A DNA stretch of 39,158 nt from a virus (IMGVR_UViG_3300046373_000033:1-39158); one strand, 5' to 3'. Counted from the first letter of the stretch, positions 7,926-21,344 are shown. Notes: generated from the letters alone by a model not told the origin. Program-made: numbers and translations.

Positions 7926-8888
7926 TCATTTTATTTTTAGAATTGCAGCCTCCATGCTTTCCACCGAAAGGTGTGAATATCGCTGAGTGCTACGGCTATC
8001 CAGATGCCCGAGTACTTTTCCGATAGTGTACAGGTCCACGCCAGCATTGATCATTGATGAGGCGGTACTGTGCCGGATATCATGGAAAACAAGGTTATTC
8101 AGACCAACCGAGTCCATTGCCTCCCTGATCTTGGTTTGGATCCAGCGTTTCTTAAAGCCTATCGGAAACTGCCTCAACGAAGACAGCGCCTTGTGATGGA
8201 CCGGCACAAGTCTTGTCGCCCCGTTCTTCACGACCTTTCCCGGTAGCAGAATTCCCCGCGTTGTAATCTGCGACTCGTTGCCAACGCTGATGATTTCACT
8301 CAGGCGCATTCCAGTGTAAAAGCCCAGCCGCAGTACGGCGCGAGACGGGCGATTCTTGCATGCTCTGGCAATCATGATCATTTCGCGGCGCGTGGCGTAG
8401 ACCTGCCTCTCATTGGAAACGGCTGGCATTGCCACACTCACAGTCCCATTGCCGAACCCGTGTTTCTCGTAGGCATAGTTGATTGCAGACCGGATGTAGG
8501 AGAGCTTGTTCTTGATACTACCCGGCGCAAGCTCGCCCCGCTCATCGTTCATGTATTCCCTAGCGACGGCTGGAAGCTGATCAATATACTTGCCATCGTA
8601 GTATGCGAACAGCCGTGCCAACTCCTTCTTTACGCCATCGCCGTTCTTTAACTCAGGACAGCGATAGCGGTAGTACAAGTCCACAGCATCGGAAATCAGG
8701 TGCCTTTTAGGCCCTGTATTAGTCGCATTTTCGTAGAGGCGGTCTGTTTCTGCTTTTGAGTACGCTTGGGCCTGGGAGCGAGACCATCCTTTCGGAAGGA
8801 GCTTAGTAGCCCTGACCCTTGTTCCATTGATAACCTTTGAGAACTCAAAGCGCCAACGACCCTTTGCACTATCGAAATATGCTGACAT
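7926..8888 (-). CDS. int: Tyrosine recombinase (phage integrase)
   Basis: FYTGMRLSEI (catalytic R), and VFHDIRHSTASSMINAGVDLYTIGKVLGHLDSRSTQRYSHL (H-x-x-R, H, Y). N-terminal GRWRFEF arm-binding-type motif. Confidence 0.9.
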   Translation of the reverse strand: MSAYFDSAKGRWRFEFSKVINGTRVRATKLLPKGWSRSQAQAYSKAETDRLYENATNTGPKRHLISDAVDLYYRYRCPELKNGDGVKKELARLFAYYDGKYIDQLPAVAREYMNDERGELAPGSIKNKLSYIRSAINYAYEKHGFGNGTVSVAMPAVSNERQVYATRREMIMIARACKNRPSRAVLRLGFYTGMRLSEIISVGNESQITTRGILLPGKVVKNGATRLVPVHHKALSSLRQFPIGFKKRWIQTKIREAMDSVGLNNLVFHDIRHSTASSMINAGVDLYTIGKVLGHLDSRSTQRYSHLSVESMEAAILKIK

Positions 8889-13762: not shown

Positions 13763-14209
13763 TCAGAATGGCAAATCTTCCAAATCATCGAATTTAGTGG
13801 CCTGACTTTGAGGTGATGGATTCGCTGATGGTCTTTGCTGCTGCGGACGTTGTTGGCTGGATTGCTGGGAATCTTGCTTTCCGCCTAACATTTGCATCGT
13901 GTCGGCTTTGATATCGGTCGCGTACTTTTCGACGCCATCCTTGTCCGTGTATTTGCGGGTGCGCAGGCTGCCTTCGACATACACCTGAGAACCCTTCTTC
14001 AGGTACTGGCCGGCGATCTCGGCCAGCTTGCCAAAGAATGTGATGCGGTGCCATTCCGTCTGCTCCTTCTTTTCACCGGTGTTCTTGTCTTTCCACGAGT
14101 CGGTGGTGGCAACGGCGATGGTAGTCATGGCGTCGCCGCTGGGCATGTAGCGTGTTTCGGGATCGCGGCCAAGGTTGCCAACGATGATGACTTTATTAAC
14201 TGATGCCAT
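13763..14209 (-). CDS. ssb: Single-stranded DNA-binding protein
   Basis: [35 protein letters not shown]...[37 protein letters not shown], a Q/P-rich linker and an acidic tip DDLEDLPF. Confidence 0.92.
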
Positions 14210-14218
14210 GATGATTCC

Positions 14219-14875
14219 TTAAGCGGCTTCTAATACGTTGTGGTGGGACCGGATCTTCTCGACGGTTTCGTTTAAGTAATCGCGTGCTGCTTGAACTTTG
14301 GTGATGATCTTTTTCTCAAGCTTGTCATCACGCTCAATGTTCACAGTCGTAACCCTGAGCGCTTCTTCAATGTGATCGACATAGTGCAAGTCTTCTTGCT
14401 CATACTTGATCAACTCGTCAGGAGTGCTGACCATGCAATAAGCGACCTGGAATTGATCCACGTCCCAAAGCATCATGTAGACGCGGCCCTGCCAGTCGTA
14501 TCCGGCTTCTTTAACTGCTTTGGCTGCAACGTCTGGGGAAGCTGGGAAGGTAGCCAGAGACCACGATGTTTTAATATCGATGATCTTTTTTTCTGGAACA
14601 AAAATATCGCACTCGCCAGTTACCCATTCGTTTGATTTCCGCTCGGCATTCTTCTTATGGGCTGTAAAGAAAACGGAGTTGTATAGCTCTATCGACTGGT
14701 CCTCACAGATAATTCCTTTTTCCATTTCCTTCCCGGAAATTACCTTGTTGTAGCCATACACATATTCTTTGGCTATCTGGTTAAGGGCAGTCTTAGCGCC
14801 TTCAGACAAAGGCTCGTCTGCCTTCTTTGCATCAGTCATAATTGTGCTGATCGATGATGCGCGAAACTTGATCAT
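14219..14875 (-). CDS. PD-(D/E)XK recombination exonuclease (YqaJ/lambda-Exo-like)
   Basis: GECDIFVPEKKIIDIKTS gives a D...D-x-K arrangement. N-terminal RASSISTIM is typical of the YqaJ family. Adjacent to ssb. Confidence 0.6.
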   Translation of the reverse strand: MIKFRASSISTIMTDAKKADEPLSEGAKTALNQIAKEYVYGYNKVISGKEMEKGIICEDQSIELYNSVFFTAHKKNAERKSNEWVTGECDIFVPEKKIIDIKTSWSLATFPASPDVAAKAVKEAGYDWQGRVYMMLWDVDQFQVAYCMVSTPDELIKYEQEDLHYVDHIEEALRVTTVNIERDDKLEKKIITKVQAARDYLNETVEKIRSHHNVLEAA

Positions 14876-15357
14876 GCTGCCTCCTTCTCAAAATCAGCGA
14901 TGACCGTTAATTGATCCTCGGTGAGGGTGAAATTACCGCGAAGCTTTCCTAATGTGTATTCACCCCTGCGTATTGATTCCAGCGCGGCAGATAGGCGCGC
15001 TTCATTGATTGGTGGTTTTGGCTTAGCTGCCACGCTAGGTCTGATGCGAAGACACTCCACCATTTCGCCGCCCATTTTTGCAGTGCTGGCAAACAAGGTA
15101 ATTTCTTTGCCCGCCCAATCTTCAATGAATGGCCCATACAGCTTGTGGATTGACTTGCTATTGGTTGCATTGAGAATCATCGGCTTCTGGCCTTTGATGT
15201 AGCAGATGGAGTGATCTTCTTTTTTTCCACCCATCATCGTGACGGTTTCGAGCTGCACATAATCTATCGTCACAGTCATGTCATCGCCGTTAGGCAATGC
15301 ATATGCACCGATAAACCTAGGGTCAACCAGAGTCTTCCAATGCGTTTTCGTTTCCAT
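14872..15357 (-). CDS. Conserved phage protein (161 aa) occupying the annealase slot upstream of the exonuclease
   Basis: ATGA-coupled to the exonuclease gene. AAAGGA lies 6 nt before the ATG. No RecT, Erf or Rad52 motif recognised. Confidence 0.6.
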   Translation of the reverse strand: METKTHWKTLVDPRFIGAYALPNGDDMTVTIDYVQLETVTMMGGKKEDHSICYIKGQKPMILNATNSKSIHKLYGPFIEDWAGKEITLFASTAKMGGEMVECLRIRPSVAAKPKPPINEARLSAALESIRRGEYTLGKLRGNFTLTEDQLTVIADFEKEAA

Positions 15358-15885: not shown

Positions 15886-15986
15886 GACTCCCTCCGTGCA
15901 ATAATCGCGTCGATGATCTCGACAGCCTGAGTCGATATCTCCGGTATCCAGCGCTTTGACGGATAAGGCCAAGCTTGTGCACTCAT
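15882..15986 (-). CDS. Micro-ORF (34 aa), tentative
   Basis: MSAQAWPYPSKRWIPEISTQAVEIIDAIIARRES, with ATGA overlaps at both ends. Confidence 0.3.
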   Translation of the reverse strand: MSAQAWPYPSKRWIPEISTQAVEIIDAIIARRES

Positions 15987-16126
15987 TTCCACCTCCGAAG
16001 TTGTTCTTTAATGTCAGCCAATTTCCACAAGTCTGAGCGCTTAGGTGCGGTGCACTCGTCAATGATTCGGCACATCACCAGCGCTGAAATAGCGCCCATC
16101 AGCAGGAAGTAAGTGAGCAGTGACAT
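15983..16126 (-). CDS. Micro-ORF (47 aa) with one hydrophobic helix, tentative
   Basis: MSLLTYFLLMGAISALVMCRIIDECTAPKRSDLWKLADIKEQLRRWK. GAGG lies 5 nt before ATG 16126. Confidence 0.4.
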   Translation of the reverse strand: MSLLTYFLLMGAISALVMCRIIDECTAPKRSDLWKLADIKEQLRRWK

Positions 16127-16138
16127 GTGGGCCTCAGA

Positions 16139-16900
16139 TTAGCTTTTGAATGCTGCCTGCATCGTTGCGAGCCATTCCTCAGACCATTCCAATGCCATCT
16201 TGGAAAATTGATTGGTCTCTGGCGTGTCGCCCCGATTGATACTCAGGAAAAAACGCTCTACTGGCCGACTGGAATTAGGCTTGAGTGAGCCAAGATCGCC
16301 GATTGCAGAATTACGCGCAGTAGCAATTGTCCCGACGAGGCATGAGCATTCGCCTTCGTAAGTAGAACCATCAACGCGACCAGCTTTTAGCGCCGCAATA
16401 AGAGCAGGCACTTCACGTGGAGCAGATGAAAGAACTGCCCAAAGGTCGTCGCGTACTGGCGTCAGGTCGGCACCGCTCAGGTAGGCGTCGCTCAGGTCGG
16501 CACCGCGCAGGTTGGCACCGCTCAGGTAGGCGTCGCTCAGGTCGGCACCGCGCAGGTTGGCACCGCTCAGGTTGGCACCGCTCAGGTAGGCGTAGCGCAG
16601 GTCGGCACCGCGCAGGTTGGCACCGCGCAGGTTGGCACCGCGCAGGTCGGCACCGCGCAGGTCGGCACCGCGCAGGTCGGCACCGCTCAGGTAGGCGTCG
16701 CTCAGGTCGGCACCGCGCAGGTTGGCACCGCTCAGGTAGGCGTCGCTCAGGTCGGCATTGCTCAGGTAGGCACCGCTCAGGTAGGTCGAAGCTTTGATTG
16801 CCATGTACAGCGTGATTGCCAGGGTATTCCCCTCTGCTTCGTGTGCAAAAAGTACGCTGCCATTCCAATGGTGCTTGATTTCGATGCGTGTCATTTCCAT
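16139..16900 (-). CDS. Pentapeptide-repeat protein with a non-repeat C-terminal domain. First gene of the PL-like operon.
   Basis: About 21-22 consecutive A(D/N)L(S/R)xx pentads ([20 protein letters not shown]...), then ...[30 protein letters not shown].... ATG 16894 (AAGGGG 6 nt upstream) is an alternative to 16900. Confidence 0.9.
16454..16783. repeat. Coding tandem repeat, 15-nt unit with 30-nt and ~90-nt higher-order copies
   Basis: The 30-mer GGCACCGCTCAGGTAGGCGTCGCTCAGGTC occurs exactly at 16469, 16514, 16679 and 16724. GGCACCGCGCAGGT(T/C) units lie between the copies. Confidence 0.9.
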
Positions 16901-16952
16901 CCCCTTGTTTGCTGGTTCGTTTAGGTTTGCTTCTGTGCTGCTGATGTGAGTA

Positions 16953-16980
16953 ACTATACACGAACGGATAGATAAAACAA
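16953..16980 (-). promoter_or_regulatory. PL-like early-left promoter (minus strand: TTGTTT-16-TATAGT) with an operator-like module shared with PR
   Basis: The reverse complement of 16952-16990 aligns with 18365-18403 at 34 of 39 positions, with -35 and -10 in register. Confidence 0.55.
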
Positions 16981-17033
16981 TACGCGAATGAATAAAAATT
17001 CAAAATAGTTTTAACGAGGTGAAAACGCAGACG

Positions 17034-17059
17034 AAAAAAAGCCAGCTCGAAAGCTGGCT
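17034..17059 (-). terminator. Intrinsic terminator for minus-strand transcripts
   Basis: The minus strand reads AGCCAGC-TTTCGA-GCTGGCT followed by TTTTTTT. Confidence 0.75.
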
Positions 17060-17120: not shown

Positions 17121-17417
17121 TTATGGAAGCTGATCAAAATGCTGTTGAAGTTTTGCCATCCATTCATCCACTGTTAGACAAGCACTTTCATAGGTTGCCA
17201 CCTGAAATTCTGTTGGGCTCTCTGAAGGAACCATCCCTATCAAAGCTTCGCGAGTATTTTGCAGTGCCTGGAGCAGCTGAGTGGGCTCTAGAACAGCAGG
17301 AATATGCGCGGATGAGGATGAAGCAATTTGGATTGATCTAAGCAGAGACATAATCACTTCCCGCTGCCCGACCTCTCGCCCGATTCCCTGGGCTATATCG
17401 ATCTGTGTAATTTCCAT
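17121..17417 (-). CDS. Hypothetical protein (98 aa), rex-position cargo. Coding strand uncertain.
   Basis: GGAG lies 5 nt before ATG 17417. The minus-strand terminator at 17034-17059 follows. Confidence 0.45.
   Translation of the reverse strand: MEITQIDIAQGIGREVGQREVIMSLLRSIQIASSSSAHIPAVLEPTQLLQALQNTREALIGMVPSESPTEFQVATYESACLTVDEWMAKLQQHFDQLP
17123..17341 (+). CDS. Hypothetical protein (72 aa), fully antisense to 17121..17417. Coding strand uncertain.
   Basis: Strong SD AGGAGG 4 nt before ATG 17123. A candidate promoter lies upstream and a plus-strand terminator downstream (17435-17466). Confidence 0.35.
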   Translation: MEADQNAVEVLPSIHPLLDKHFHRLPPEILLGSLKEPSLSKLREYFAVPGAAEWALEQQEYARMRMKQFGLI

Positions 17418-17434
17418 TCAATCTCCGTAGTGTT

Positions 17435-17466
17435 TGCCCGCGCTAACATAGGCGGGCATTTTTATT
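17435..17466 (+). terminator. Intrinsic terminator oriented for plus-strand transcripts
   Basis: TGCCCGC (17435-17441) pairs with GCGGGCA (17452-17458), followed by TTTTTATTTATT. There is no T-run on the other strand. Confidence 0.6.
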
Positions 17467-17656
17467 TATTGTCGATGGGCCATTTTTTGAATGCAAATAC
17501 CCAAAGAAAAACTAAGTTGAGCAATGGCAGCAGCATTAAAAGCACAAGCCACCTTGAATGGCCGGTTCGGCCAAGCAGTTTTACTAGCGGAATCCCCAAA
17601 GCCAAGAATCCTAAAATGGCAGGAAAGAAAACAGCAATTAATTCAGAGTCATTCAT
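17462..17656 (-). CDS. Small two-helix membrane protein (64 aa), rex-position cargo
   Basis: LIAVFFPAILGFLALGIPLV and WLVLLMLLPLLNLVFLWVFAF. The surrounding DNA is very AT-rich (one 60-nt line counted at 15 G+C). Confidence 0.6.
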   Translation of the reverse strand: MNDSELIAVFFPAILGFLALGIPLVKLLGRTGHSRWLVLLMLLPLLNLVFLWVFAFKKWPIDNK

Positions 17657-17890
17657 CCTTATAAGTTCCTTTTAATAAATATTTCAAATTTGCACTTTTA
17701 ACTGTTCGTCAACTCTGGTAATGTTTCAATCTGCCTGTGTTTACATACAGCGCCGAAAATTTGAAAGGATCGCCGTGCAAGAGAATTCAGTTCCAGTACC
17801 AGCAGATCCCCAGTTCTTGCGTATGTACGCATCCTTCTTGTTAATGACAAAAGAAGAACGAGACCATCAGGAGGATTCTTTTGCCGAAAT

Positions 17891-17919
17891 AGCAAAAGGG
17901 CGCTCCATTAAAAGCGCCC
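17891..17919 (-). terminator. Intrinsic terminator directly after the repressor gene
   Basis: The minus strand reads GGGCGCT-TTTAATGG-AGCGCCC followed by TTTTGCTATTT. Confidence 0.7.
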
Positions 17920-17930
17920 CATCGTTAAAG

Positions 17931-18355: not shown

Positions 18356-18374
18356 AAACACATCCATTTGCGTA

Positions 18375-18402
18375 TTGCATTGTCTATCCATTCGTGTATA
18401 GT
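18375..18402 (+). promoter_or_regulatory. PR-like promoter TTGCAT-16-TATAGT, 6 nt upstream of the cro-like ATG
   Basis: TTGCAT at 18375-18380, TATAGT at 18397-18402, ATG at 18409. Confidence 0.6.
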
Positions 18403-18408
18403 TTGGAG

Positions 18409-18648
18409 ATGGACAAGAAAACCGCCCCCTCGATGCTGCACGAAATCCAAGAGCAAACACTTTGGACGCAGCCTAAATTAGCTGCCGAACTTGGCACCTC
18501 TCAACCCACTGTGCACCGCATTCTTAATGGGCAGGAGGAGTGCAAAGTCTCCACTTTTCAAGCCATTCTTTCATTGCATAAATCTGTTCTCGCCAGGAAG
18601 AAACGCGCTGCATCTAACTTGGCTAAATCATCGCACAAAAATACGTGA
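18409..18648 (+). CDS. Cro-like HTH regulator (79 aa)
   Basis: Track ORF starts at GTG 18394 inside the promoter, so I use ATG 18409: MDKKTAPSMLHEIQEQTLWTQPKLAAELGTSQPTVHRILNG.... Confidence 0.7.
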   Translation: MDKKTAPSMLHEIQEQTLWTQPKLAAELGTSQPTVHRILNGQEECKVSTFQAILSLHKSVLARKKRAASNLAKSSHKNT

Positions 18649-18707
18649 ATGAATAATCAAATTTATTCAATTGACAATATTTTTCAAATTTATGTGATGG
18701 GCTAATT

Positions 18708-19253
18708 ATGAAAAAAACAAAGAAAAGTTTGCAAAAGACATCTCGTGTTTGCACATGCGGAAAAGACATCACCTGTTGGAGTGGGCGATTTAAAAAGTGC
18801 ATTTTGTGCCGAAAGGCTGATGCGCCAACCAAAACATGCGGCGATTGCGGCGAGTCATTCCGCGGGCTGTGGGCGCGTCGTTGTGACGTTTGCACAAAAG
18901 TTCGTTACGTCTTCCGAGTTTACGGCTCCGGCCAAACTCTCGCCGTTTCTGAGGTTGCAAAAGCTCGCAACAGGAAAGACCTGCTTCCAGCCTACGACCA
19001 TAAGTGCGTTGACTGCGGCGCAGACGCATTGGAATACGACCATCGAGATTACAGCAAGCCATTGGACGTCGAGCCGGTCTGCAAAAGCTGCAACTGCCAA
19101 AGAAAATCTGCAAAGCCCAAAAACTGGTCATTTGACGAGTTCATGACCTATTACAAAGGCCTGCTTAGCAATTCTGTCGGCCCCCATTACTTCGAAATGA
19201 ATGAGCGCGAGCTTTGTGCCATGCGGAACCAATATTTTGGTGTCGCATCATGA
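18708..19253 (+). CDS. Cys-rich zinc-ribbon protein with an HNH-like C-terminal half
   Basis: CTCG...CILC, CGDCG...CDVC, then HKCVDCGADALEYDHRDYSKPLDVEPVCKSCNCQRK (C.xCG...DH.DY..P..V..C..CN pattern). Confidence 0.45.
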   Translation: MKKTKKSLQKTSRVCTCGKDITCWSGRFKKCILCRKADAPTKTCGDCGESFRGLWARRCDVCTKVRYVFRVYGSGQTLAVSEVAKARNRKDLLPAYDHKCVDCGADALEYDHRDYSKPLDVEPVCKSCNCQRKSAKPKNWSFDEFMTYYKGLLSNSVGPHYFEMNERELCAMRNQYFGVAS

Positions 19254-20454: not shown

Positions 20455-21344
20455 ACTACTACAGCCATCACATCGGGGACTTTAACAACGCTACTCGCCA
20501 CTTGAGTCGCGTAGAGAGAAGTATCTACCGAGACATGCTCGACATGTACTACGACACTGAGCAGCCTCTGCCGCTCGATGTGAAGGTGCTTAGTCGGAAG
20601 TTGCTAGCGAGATCTCCAGAAGAGTCTCAAGCGGTAACTCAATTGCTCGAAGAGTTTTTTACTGAGACAGCTCAGGGCTGGTATCACGAAAGATGCGAGC
20701 AAGAGATTGCCGAGTATCACACGAGCGTTACTGCGAAGTCAGCAGCAGGCAAAGCAAGTGCAGCTAAACGTGAAGCAGGTCGCATTGCACGATTAGCAGA
20801 ATTGAACGGCAGTTCAACACCTGTTCAACAGGTGATCAACGAGTGTTCAACAGCCGTTGAGCAGGTGATGGATTCTGTTGATAGCTCTGTTCAACTAACC
20901 AATAACCATAAACCAATAACCAATAACCATGAACCATTAAAAGAAAAAGCTCCGGCTGCGCCGAAGTATTCCGAAAAGGATGCCATTGCCGAATTGGTCG
21001 CCTTGGGAGTTGATGCGCAAGTTGCTGGCGATTGGATGATTGTCCGAAAGGGCAAAGGCTCTAAGCCGAACAAAACAGGTATTAACGAAGCCCTAAAAAA
21101 CATCGCAGATGCCGGCATGACTGTGGACCAAGGAATACGCATTTGCTGCGAGCGGGGTTGGGCTGGTTTCAATAAGGCGTGGCTGCCAAACGCAATGACC
21201 GGAGCGCATCCACGCGCTGGCCCGCCTTACCAAACCGCACGAGACAAAGCAAAGGCATGGGCAGACATAGCAACGGGGCAGACAAATGGAAATCATCAAC
21301 CGCAGTTCATCGACCTCAACCCCGCTCCCTTCGAACTGGGTTGA
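20451..21344 (+). CDS. Replication initiator-like protein, DUF1376 (YdaU) N-terminal domain
   Basis: MNYYSHHIGDFNNATRHLSRVERSIYRDMLDMYYDTEQPLP is the DUF1376 signature. GTGA-coupled start. Confidence 0.7.
   Translation: MNYYSHHIGDFNNATRHLSRVERSIYRDMLDMYYDTEQPLPLDVKVLSRKLLARSPEESQAVTQLLEEFFTETAQGWYHERCEQEIAEYHTSVTAKSAAGKASAAKREAGRIARLAELNGSSTPVQQVINECSTAVEQVMDSVDSSVQLTNNHKPITNNHEPLKEKAPAAPKYSEKDAIAELVALGVDAQVAGDWMIVRKGKGSKPNKTGINEALKNIADAGMTVDQGIRICCERGWAGFNKAWLPNAMTGAHPRAGPPYQTARDKAKAWADIATGQTNGNHQPQFIDLNPAPFELG
20896..20937. repeat. Six tandem heptamers TAACCAW inside the initiator gene linker (candidate iterons)
   Basis: taaccaa taaccat aaaccaa taaccaa taaccat gaaccat, followed by the A-rich string ttaaaagaaaaag. 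Encodes TNNHKPITNNHEPL. Confidence 0.8.

Follow-up and report, generated by a model that had tools for sequence, protein, structure and literature searches.

The 39,158-nt viral sequence IMGVR_UViG_3300046373_000033:1-39158, which at its full length we call the window, encodes on its minus strand a pentapeptide-repeat protein (PRP) whose gene we assign, from the sequence, to the first position of a leftward, operator-controlled early operon. The gene has three parts: an N-terminal cap (N-cap), an array of near-identical 15-nt units that, judging by its codons and internal duplications, was recently amplified or homogenized, and a conserved C-terminal domain (C-domain). It is a new member of the functionally uncharacterized early-left PRPs of phages and belongs to a large unnamed subfamily with an orphan C-domain.

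The gene encodes 253 amino acids (aa) when read from the ATG at 16900 and 251 aa when read from the ATG at 16894. The second ATG is probably the real start (MTRIEIK...), because it is located 6 nt past a Shine-Dalgarno sequence (AAGGGG) and is aligned with the homologue start MKIEIKNRW. Thus, the 253-aa open reading frame (ORF) that an earlier note on this DNA had given as the gene is present, but its start probably has to be moved to the second ATG. The protein matches Pfam PF00805 with 143.5 bits (E = 1.1e-42, cut-off 20.2) and contains 22 consecutive pentads of the form A(D/N/Y)L(S/R)(G/D), without interruption, followed by the 105-aa C-domain; the earlier note had described ~21-22 unbroken pentads and a distinct C-domain, in agreement with this count. 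The net charge is -7 (pI 5.0) for the whole protein and -4 (pI 4.4) for the array alone. Two ORFs in other frames cover the array, one at 16413-17003 on the minus strand (196 aa) and the other at 16417-16797 on the plus strand (126 aa); both are Arg/Pro/Gly-rich and are by-products of the repeat, not genes.

At the DNA level, Tandem Repeats Finder delimited a tract from 16462 to 16782 with a period of 15 nt, 21.4 copies and 84% matches. The 30-mer GGCACCGCTCAGGTAGGCGTCGCTCAGGTC occurs exactly four times, at 16469, 16514, 16679 and 16724, where none is expected from shuffled sequences; both the count and all four positions had been claimed before. The ~90-nt block that had been reported as duplicated 210 nt apart is real, its exact length being 85 nt (16463-16547 = 16673-16757), and the array contains a further exact duplicate of 59 nt at offsets of 45 and 165. 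Each residue is encoded by a single codon across the 22 pentads (Ala GCC, Leu CTG, Gly GGT, Ser AGC, Arg CGC, Asp GAC and Tyr TAC), so that the 22 units differ from the consensus unit GCCGACCTGAGCGGT by 0 synonymous and 41 nonsynonymous changes. Fisher's test on these differences gave P = 2e-6 with each unit counted; by our own estimate, P is ~0.02 if only distinct variant states are counted, the value being weaker because array blocks are copied together. Codon bias was considered as a source of the homogeneity and rejected, since the array codons are not those preferred by the phage: elsewhere in the window, GCC makes up 23% of the Ala codons, GGT 20% of the Gly codons and AGC 22% of the Ser codons, and the joint probability of the array codon set under genome usage is ~1e-56. 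The G+C content is 71% in the array and 51.6% in the window. The lack of synonymous differences, the exact duplicates and the non-preferred codons together indicate a recent amplification or homogenization of the array, which supports the in-frame expansion proposed in the earlier note. The same note had set the gene apart from typical pentapeptide genes; the distinction holds against degenerate arrays but not against phage-borne PRPs, in which homogeneous arrays are the norm.

The promoter region places this gene at the head of its operon. A 42-nt element at 16952-16993 (minus strand TTCATTCGCGTATTGTTTTATCTATCCGTTCGTGTATAGTT) forms the inverted repeat I1 with 18362-18403, the two being 86% complementary, and a -35/-10 pair and two operator-like 20-mers are present in both copies. 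The PR-side copy has the cro-like gene on one side and the divergent helix-turn-helix (HTH) repressor gene on the other, whereas the PL-side copy is separated from the PRP start by a leader of ~45 nt. Since the PL-like promoter and the PRP start have no ORF between them, the PRP is predicted to head the operon, and the claim that it is the first gene behind a promoter/operator copied at PR therefore stands. This arrangement supports immediate-early expression of the PRP from the operator-controlled PL-like promoter. No N-like antiterminator was recognized. The leftward operon continues 3' of the PRP gene with a 47-aa predicted membrane protein, several ORFs of unknown function, an exonuclease, an SSB, an HD-domain protein and an integrase. 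A third copy of the operator-like 20-mer (90% identical) was located at 18637-18656, just past the stop codon of the cro-like gene; it adjoins an AT-rich palindrome (18659-18682) and precedes the next rightward gene, and could serve the repressor or Cro as an additional site or belong to a second promoter.

A search with the C-domain found 219 proteins at E <= 1e-3 (best 4.6e-48), largely from Burkholderiales (Janthinobacterium, Massilia, Burkholderia and Glaciimonas), and a profile search of 1.84 billion representatives found 1231 clusters, defined at 50% identity, at E <= 1e-3 and 937 at E <= 1e-10. Genome hits were distributed over Pseudomonadota, Acidobacteriota, Bacteroidota, Verrucomicrobiota, Actinomycetota and Paenibacillus. 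We inspected 18 representatives, and in 17 of them a PRP array and an IEIKNRW-type N-cap precede the C-domain. Proteins with a stand-alone C-domain were considered, and the apparent cases proved to be mostly contig-edge fragments or miscalled starts. Across 62 sequences, the C-domain has 19 invariant columns with the motifs Y-x-G-x-C-x-C-L-V-G-T and R-P-x-E-x-F-F; the window protein carries the family C-domain motifs RPxERFF and GDTPE and the N-cap motif (I/F)E(I)(K/R)xRW. An exact-sequence look-up of the window protein gave no match. The sole isolated phage with a family gene is the Bordetella avium phage vB_BaM-IFTN6 (IFTN6), whose 249-aa gp49 has a C-domain 80% identical to that of the window protein. 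Between these two C-domains, 61 of the 105 codons differ synonymously and only 21 nonsynonymously, a pattern of strong purifying selection. Most of the 64 family loci keep an intact frame; degraded-looking members have an internal deletion in the C-domain (L046) or a frameshift after ALIEALKGG (L047), and in another member (L050) the array is irregular and the C-x-C motif is lost. In the literature on characterized phage PRPs we found annotation-level mentions only, and gp49 is not discussed in the IFTN6 paper (PMC10269795).

The position of the gene is shared within the family as well. In the comparison, which used called genes with Pfam hits or GenBank annotation, the PRP gene is, in the readable contexts, a promoter-proximal gene of the leftward operon; it is found on the repressor side of the switch, with the recombination module behind it. 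The 3' genes are ERF, SSB and integrase in L004, YqaJ and integrase in the JGI contig, a DUF3799 nuclease in L072, exonuclease VIII and RecT in IFTN6, and ERF and DUF3799 in the Paenibacillus prophage L057, whose contig is cut just upstream so that the repressor side is not seen; in L071, the S24 repressor and P22_Cro come before the PRP gene and the contig ends just past it. The PRP gene is first in the operon in the window, L004 and IFTN6, and elsewhere one to four small ORFs precede it. Few other genes are common to the family-bearing phages, which suggests that the PRP gene travels as a cassette. An accessory gene beside the immunity region, mobile among mosaic phages and sharing few neighbor genes, is also what would be expected of a prophage-expressed defense or superinfection-exclusion gene (moron) that benefits the lysogen. 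We give this explanation almost no credence: the operator-bearing promoter should be shut in a lysogen, the terminator just upstream of PL isolates the PRP gene from the repressor transcript, the gene is co-oriented with lytic-early recombination genes, and PADLOC gave no match for the PRP (0 families at E <= 0.01) or for the small neighboring ORFs.

Comparison across the family indicates that homogeneous arrays and copy-number change are a family-wide property, not a peculiarity of the window gene. Among 60 loci, the major-codon fraction is 0.9-1.0 in most arrays, compared with 0.4-0.7 in the flanks, and the array length ranges from ~2 to >37 pentads, with the 22 pentads of the window in mid-range. 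In nearly all arrays the variable nucleotides of the unit are positions 4 and 10-15, which encode the outward-facing residues, while the Ala and Leu codons are fixed, third positions included; the overall composition varies between S-rich, T-rich and V/D types. That the length can vary, as noted earlier for the window gene, is borne out between close relatives: Burkholderia prophage PRP genes with 99-99.7% identical flanks have 18 and 15 pentads, and a Burkholderia prophage trio with 96-99% identical flanks has 25, 18 and 13. The unrelated PRPs of P22-like phages show the same behavior, as ST104 orf19 and epsilon34 gp42, with 97-99% identical flanks, have ~21 and ~12. Phages L and ST64T, which are >99.9% identical, differ in orf232 by one 15-bp unit, and most early-left gene functions of these phages are listed as unknown by the authors (PMC8022706). 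A metagenome scan with the C-domain returned no relative above 80% identity, so that the length variation is seen in relatives and not in the window gene itself. We propose that the array would evolve via slippage or unequal recombination between near-identical 15-nt units; in that case its length and the outward residues (D/N/Y, S/R and G/D) would change fast, and the inward Ala and Leu and the end domains would remain fixed.

Assembly from k-mers may have collapsed the short arrays seen in metagenomes, and the finished phage and isolate genomes are therefore the trustworthy cases of length. The same concern could be extended to the window, in that its exact repeat count or structure might be an assembly artefact of a low-complexity tract, given that short-read assembly tends to collapse or expand arrays built of 15-nt units and that the homologues from Logan and ENA are mostly short. 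We consider such an artefact very unlikely, since the longest exact internal repeat (85 nt) is within ordinary read reach, the frame is intact, and similar lengths are found in finished phage genomes (249 aa in IFTN6 and 214 aa in ST104).

The 15-nt unit itself is shared more widely than the domains around it. The window and IFTN6 have the same unit at every position, although the C-domain DNA is only 66% identical, and the same unit (GCC GAC CTG AGC/CGC GGT) is the PRP consensus in Salmonella and Edwardsiella phages, in which the end domains are non-homologous. That arrays have a unit in common while their flanks are saturated with synonymous changes or non-homologous points to an exchange of arrays or to selection on the DNA. 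Three explanations may apply: arrays may be exchanged or converted between phages, the nucleotide sequence itself may be under selection, or the surface codons may be confined to a one-step mutational network (GAC/AAC/TAC and AGC/CGC/TGC/GGC).

To the family sequence data we can add a predicted structure, in line with the earlier proposal that structure prediction should yield a beta-helix with a C-domain. AlphaFold2, run on the alignment of 62 sequences, gave a model of the window protein with a mean predicted local distance difference test score (pLDDT) of 90.1 and a predicted template modeling score (pTM) of 0.72. The N-cap is a beta-hairpin and a helix, the array has one short strand per pentad (residues 40-146), and the C-domain consists of five helices and a small hairpin. 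The model supports an array folded as a right-handed quadrilateral beta-helix with four pentads per coil, ~5.5 coils and a length of ~26 A. Foldseek matched it to PRP structures in the PDB (2j8k, synthetic beta1, MfpA, QnrB1 and AlbG; E = 1e-11 to 1e-4, probability 1.00), with the consensus-type PRPs (2j8k and the designed beta1 solenoids) first and MfpA, QnrB1, EfsQnr and AlbG lower. Modeled alone, the C-domain reached a pLDDT of 95.7; its best Foldseek match in PDB or BFVD had E ~2-3, and its sequence had no match in Pfam, NCBIfam or the PDB. In PHROGs, matches were restricted to the N-terminal part and the repeats, and all were to families of unknown function.

Because the fold class is the same, and MfpA, QnrB1, EfsQnr and AlbG are among the Foldseek matches, the PRP could be of the Qnr/MfpA/AlbG type, the best-characterized bacterial PRPs (PMC10886550). 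It would then bind gyrase or topoisomerase IV, and either shield the enzyme from poisons (toxin-antitoxin or abortive-infection toxins, microcins or quinolones) or modulate supercoiling for phage replication. We judge this to be improbable. The window protein scores far below the NCBIfam cut-offs, with 40.4 bits for Qnr (cut-off 240), 47.7 for MfpA (360) and 25-44 for QnrA, B, S, VC and others (425-500). Its array lacks the Qnr loops, its closest structures are consensus-type PRPs and its C-terminal domain is different. Furthermore, a protein that fits the gyrase saddle in a fixed way could not vary as the family does, from ~2 to >37 pentads.

A constraint on the phase of the array was sought and not found, the pentad count modulo 4 being near uniform in the main register class (9/13/16/14). 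Thus, how the N-cap is rotated relative to the C-domain is not conserved, which argues against a rigid connector between co-operating end domains. Together with the very wide length range and the very different array composition between members, this uniformity would suit a protein that works through its C-domain, whose invariant motifs would bind, for example, a small molecule, a metal or a host protein. The beta-helix would then be only a stalk or cap, whose length drifts near-neutrally because perfect 15-nt repeats slip and recombine. The C-domain is indeed the most conserved part of the protein, as judged from its invariant columns, the signature of strong purifying selection and the number of its clusters. 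However, it is preceded by the array in nearly all representatives inspected, with the stand-alone forms mostly fragments or miscalled starts, and the frame and inward residues of the array are always kept, all 41 unit differences in the window being nonsynonymous. We regard a mere stalk as rather unlikely, though it has to be taken seriously.

We prefer, tentatively and as a possibility short of a probability, a role of the PRP in host takeover or counter-defense, with the solenoid as a DNA-sized rod directed against a host DNA-processing enzyme or defense nuclease. The PRP would be an immediate-early accessory protein of a temperate phage, made from the repressor-controlled PL-like promoter once repression is absent or lifted. 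It would be a rigid beta-helix closed by the small N-cap and carrying the conserved helical C-domain, which might act as a cap, dimerizer or specificity element, and the mostly acidic solenoid would occupy the DNA-binding site of the host enzyme. As the target, a nuclease that endangers phage DNA on entry or during recombination (RecBCD/AddAB-like, restriction or other defense) would be more likely than gyrase. We infer both the binding partner and the host effect, and favor a role against a host nuclease because of the early-left niche and the constant position ahead of the recombination module. In lambdoid phages the promoter-proximal part of this niche holds ral, gam or abc, kil and sieB-type functions, as is in part apparent from P22-like annotations. 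The unrelated PRPs of P22-like phages share the niche among ral, abc and erf, and no Pfam match to Gam or Abc2 was found in the four annotated contexts (L004, L071, the JGI contig and L072); we count both observations in favor of the counter-defense role, along with the predicted fold, the rapid change confined to surface positions, the selection on the C-domain and the acidity of the repeat region.

Several points weigh against this role. First, the net charge within the family ranges from 0 to -22 and several members are not acidic, which weakens DNA mimicry as a universal reading. Second, with such a range of pentad numbers and a near-uniform count modulo 4, the DNA site of one enzyme would be hard to match, and some of the short copy numbers may stem from collapsed short-read assemblies; such variation in charge and length speaks against a simple Qnr-like mechanism. 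Third, neither experiment nor homology ties the PRP to any target. Fourth, PRP domains can be generic scaffolds for protein binding as well, as in HetL, PipB2 and NleL. Fifth, P22-like phages carry both a PRP and Abc2, so that the PRP there is not the sole anti-RecBCD function. Finally, BREX was not relieved by McbG or QnrB when DNA mimics were tested (PMC7261183). A DNA-mimic or anti-defense role, as suggested in the earlier note, is a plausible hypothesis. A bolder extension, which we hold to be doubtful, is that these proteins form a new counter-defense class, in which a length-tunable beta-solenoid has its surface re-patterned to track host DNA-binding targets, the C-domain has a fold unseen in the PDB, and tracts are possibly exchanged between unrelated phage PRP genes. 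Such exchange would explain the occurrence of the same 15-nt unit in the Bordetella, Salmonella and Edwardsiella phages and the window despite diverged or non-homologous flanks.

The features of the window that bear on the gene are collected in Table 1.

Table 1 Features of the PRP gene, the immunity region and the leftward operon in the window
Feature	Position	Strand	Evidence and remarks
Pentapeptide-repeat protein gene	16139..16900	-	ORF list; PF00805 E = 1e-42; AlphaFold2 mean pLDDT 90.1; stop 16139-16141
N-terminal cap, aa 1-38	16787..16900	-	beta-hairpin + helix (E3-9, E16-23, H27-39); IEIKNRW-type family motif
Array, 22 pentads, aa 39-148	16457..16786	-	15-nt unit GCC GAC CTG AGC GGT
Helical C-terminal domain, 105 aa	16142..16456	-	motifs RPVERFF, GDTPETN; 219 homologues; pLDDT 95.7
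PL-like promoter, two operator-like 20-mers (TTGTTT ... TATAGT)	16952..16993	-	inverted copy of PR region; direct repeat D1
Intrinsic terminator of repressor-side (lysogenic) transcript	17040..17059	-	8-bp G+C-rich stem, then TTTTTTT; just upstream of PL
HTH repressor, CI-like, 149 aa	17931..18380	-	PF01381 HTH_3 E = 6e-12; PHROG transcriptional repressor families
PR-like promoter/operator (TTGCAT ... TATAGT)	18362..18403	+	directly before cro-like gene
cro-like HTH regulator	18394..18648	+	phrog_6831 transcriptional regulator, E = 4e-10
Recombination module: 161-aa protein (phrog_21613), exonuclease 14219-14875, SSB 13763-14209	13763..15357	-	phrog_5715 E = 1e-68; PF00436 E = 7e-40
Integrase, distal end of leftward block	7926..8888	-	PF00589 E = 6e-19

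Directly 3' of the PRP gene, the 47-aa ORF at 15983-16126 contains a single hydrophobic helix (MSLLTYFLLMGAISALVMC...) and is a predicted membrane protein; similar-sized small ORFs come after the PRP gene in L004, L005 and L006 (58 aa). The region between the repressor gene and the PL terminator (17121-17920), bracketed by terminators at 17897-17920 and 17040-17059, encodes a 64-aa predicted membrane protein (17462-17656, minus strand) with a weak match to phrog_16232, and an ambiguous ORF pair at 17121-17417 (minus strand) and 17123-17341 (plus strand). By analogy, the location of these ORFs would fit lysogen-expressed exclusion genes of the rexAB or sieB type. Past the cro-like gene, a Cys-rich protein of 181 aa (18708-19253) has several CxxC pairs and a DHRD motif and looks like a zinc-finger or HNH-type protein; it had no match in Pfam or PADLOC. 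Rfam gave no match on the whole window, and the window contains no tRNAs. Megablast of the window against phages retrieved only the repeat tract and a 38-nt piece common to Moraxella phages. This stretch, at 20889-20926 in a replication-region gene, is 97% identical to Moraxella catarrhalis phages and is the only non-repeat DNA match to isolated phages; there is no close relative in INPHARED. The only relative of the capsid protein is a 56%-identical match in a metagenome-assembled genome of Saprospiraceae.

Many temperate phages carry PRP genes in their early-left operons, and these genes belong to at least two unrelated families. The window presents a clean case, with the PRP as the first gene after PL, no N gene between them, and a large, freshly amplified array. 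From the family-wide comparison we predict that the length is hypervariable, that variation stays on the surface, that the orphan C-domain is conserved and that the gene keeps its place before the recombination module. Should the protein neutralize a host nuclease or defense, the family would be a widespread anti-defense family and a natural length-tunable scaffold; if array length is neutral, the family would still mark very recent phage divergence.

Among known systems, lambda Gam, T7 gp5.9, T7 Ocr and plasmid ArdA are DNA-mimic inhibitors, a type marked by dense negative surface charge in imitation of the phosphate backbone, and their genes lie with or close to recombination or early genes. 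They offer a functional analogy only to the window PRP, as a predicted early, acidic, rod-like protein encoded upstream of a recombination module (PMC7261183, PMC2731889). They have no sequence or fold similarity to the window protein, whose net charge (-7) is much weaker. MfpA, Qnr, AlbG and McbG share with it the right-handed quadrilateral beta-helix and an acidic character overall, and are a plausible working analogue (PMC10886550). However, Qnr has loops and the topoisomerase-protecting PRPs have a fixed length (~8-10 coils), in contrast to the uninterrupted 5.5 coils of the window protein and the hypervariable length of its family. Likewise, Qnr and MfpA, which dimerize through a C-terminal helix, have a C-terminus that differs from the five-helix domain of 105 aa in the window protein, and MfpA, Qnr, AlbG and McbG are chromosomal, plasmid or immunity genes, whereas the window gene is phage-early. 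The best array matches are the cyanobacterial consensus-type PRPs (Np275/Np276, Rfr23 and Alr5209) and the designed beta1 solenoids. The window array superimposes on 2j8k with a root-mean-square deviation of 1.1 A over 106 columns at 52% identity, and the window protein scores 110.9 bits with NF052603 (Alr5209), below the cut-off of 125; these proteins lack equivalent end domains and have unknown or unrelated functions.

Closer in behavior are the P22-like PRPs (ST64T/L orf232, ST104 orf19 and epsilon34 gp42) and ORF62 of Edwardsiella phage MSW-3, which have homogeneous 15-nt arrays with the consensus codons of the window. The P22-like genes are located in the PL operon among ral, c3, kil, erf and abc and vary in copy number. 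Unlike the window PRP, which is first, they are preceded by N/24 and ral, their N-termini (MNSADLSKILEEHKVW...) differ from that of the window protein, and their C-domains are non-homologous to its C-domain (hhalign probability 3.9%). On sequence grounds, then, the window and P22-like PRPs share behavior and not the ancestry of the whole gene. The closest counterpart is gp49 of IFTN6 (UOK17382.1, annotated as 'pentapeptide repeat family protein'). The order and types of its pentads differ from those in the window, and its leader spans ~450 nt without an annotated gene (L073 5040-5586), compared with ~45 nt in the window; a regulatory RNA or a small ORF missed by the annotation could be located in this longer leader. 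Nevertheless, gp49 has the same N-cap/array/C-domain organization and the same 15-nt unit as the window protein, and its gene likewise follows a terminator and a promoter, downstream of the repressor and before the exonuclease and RecT genes.

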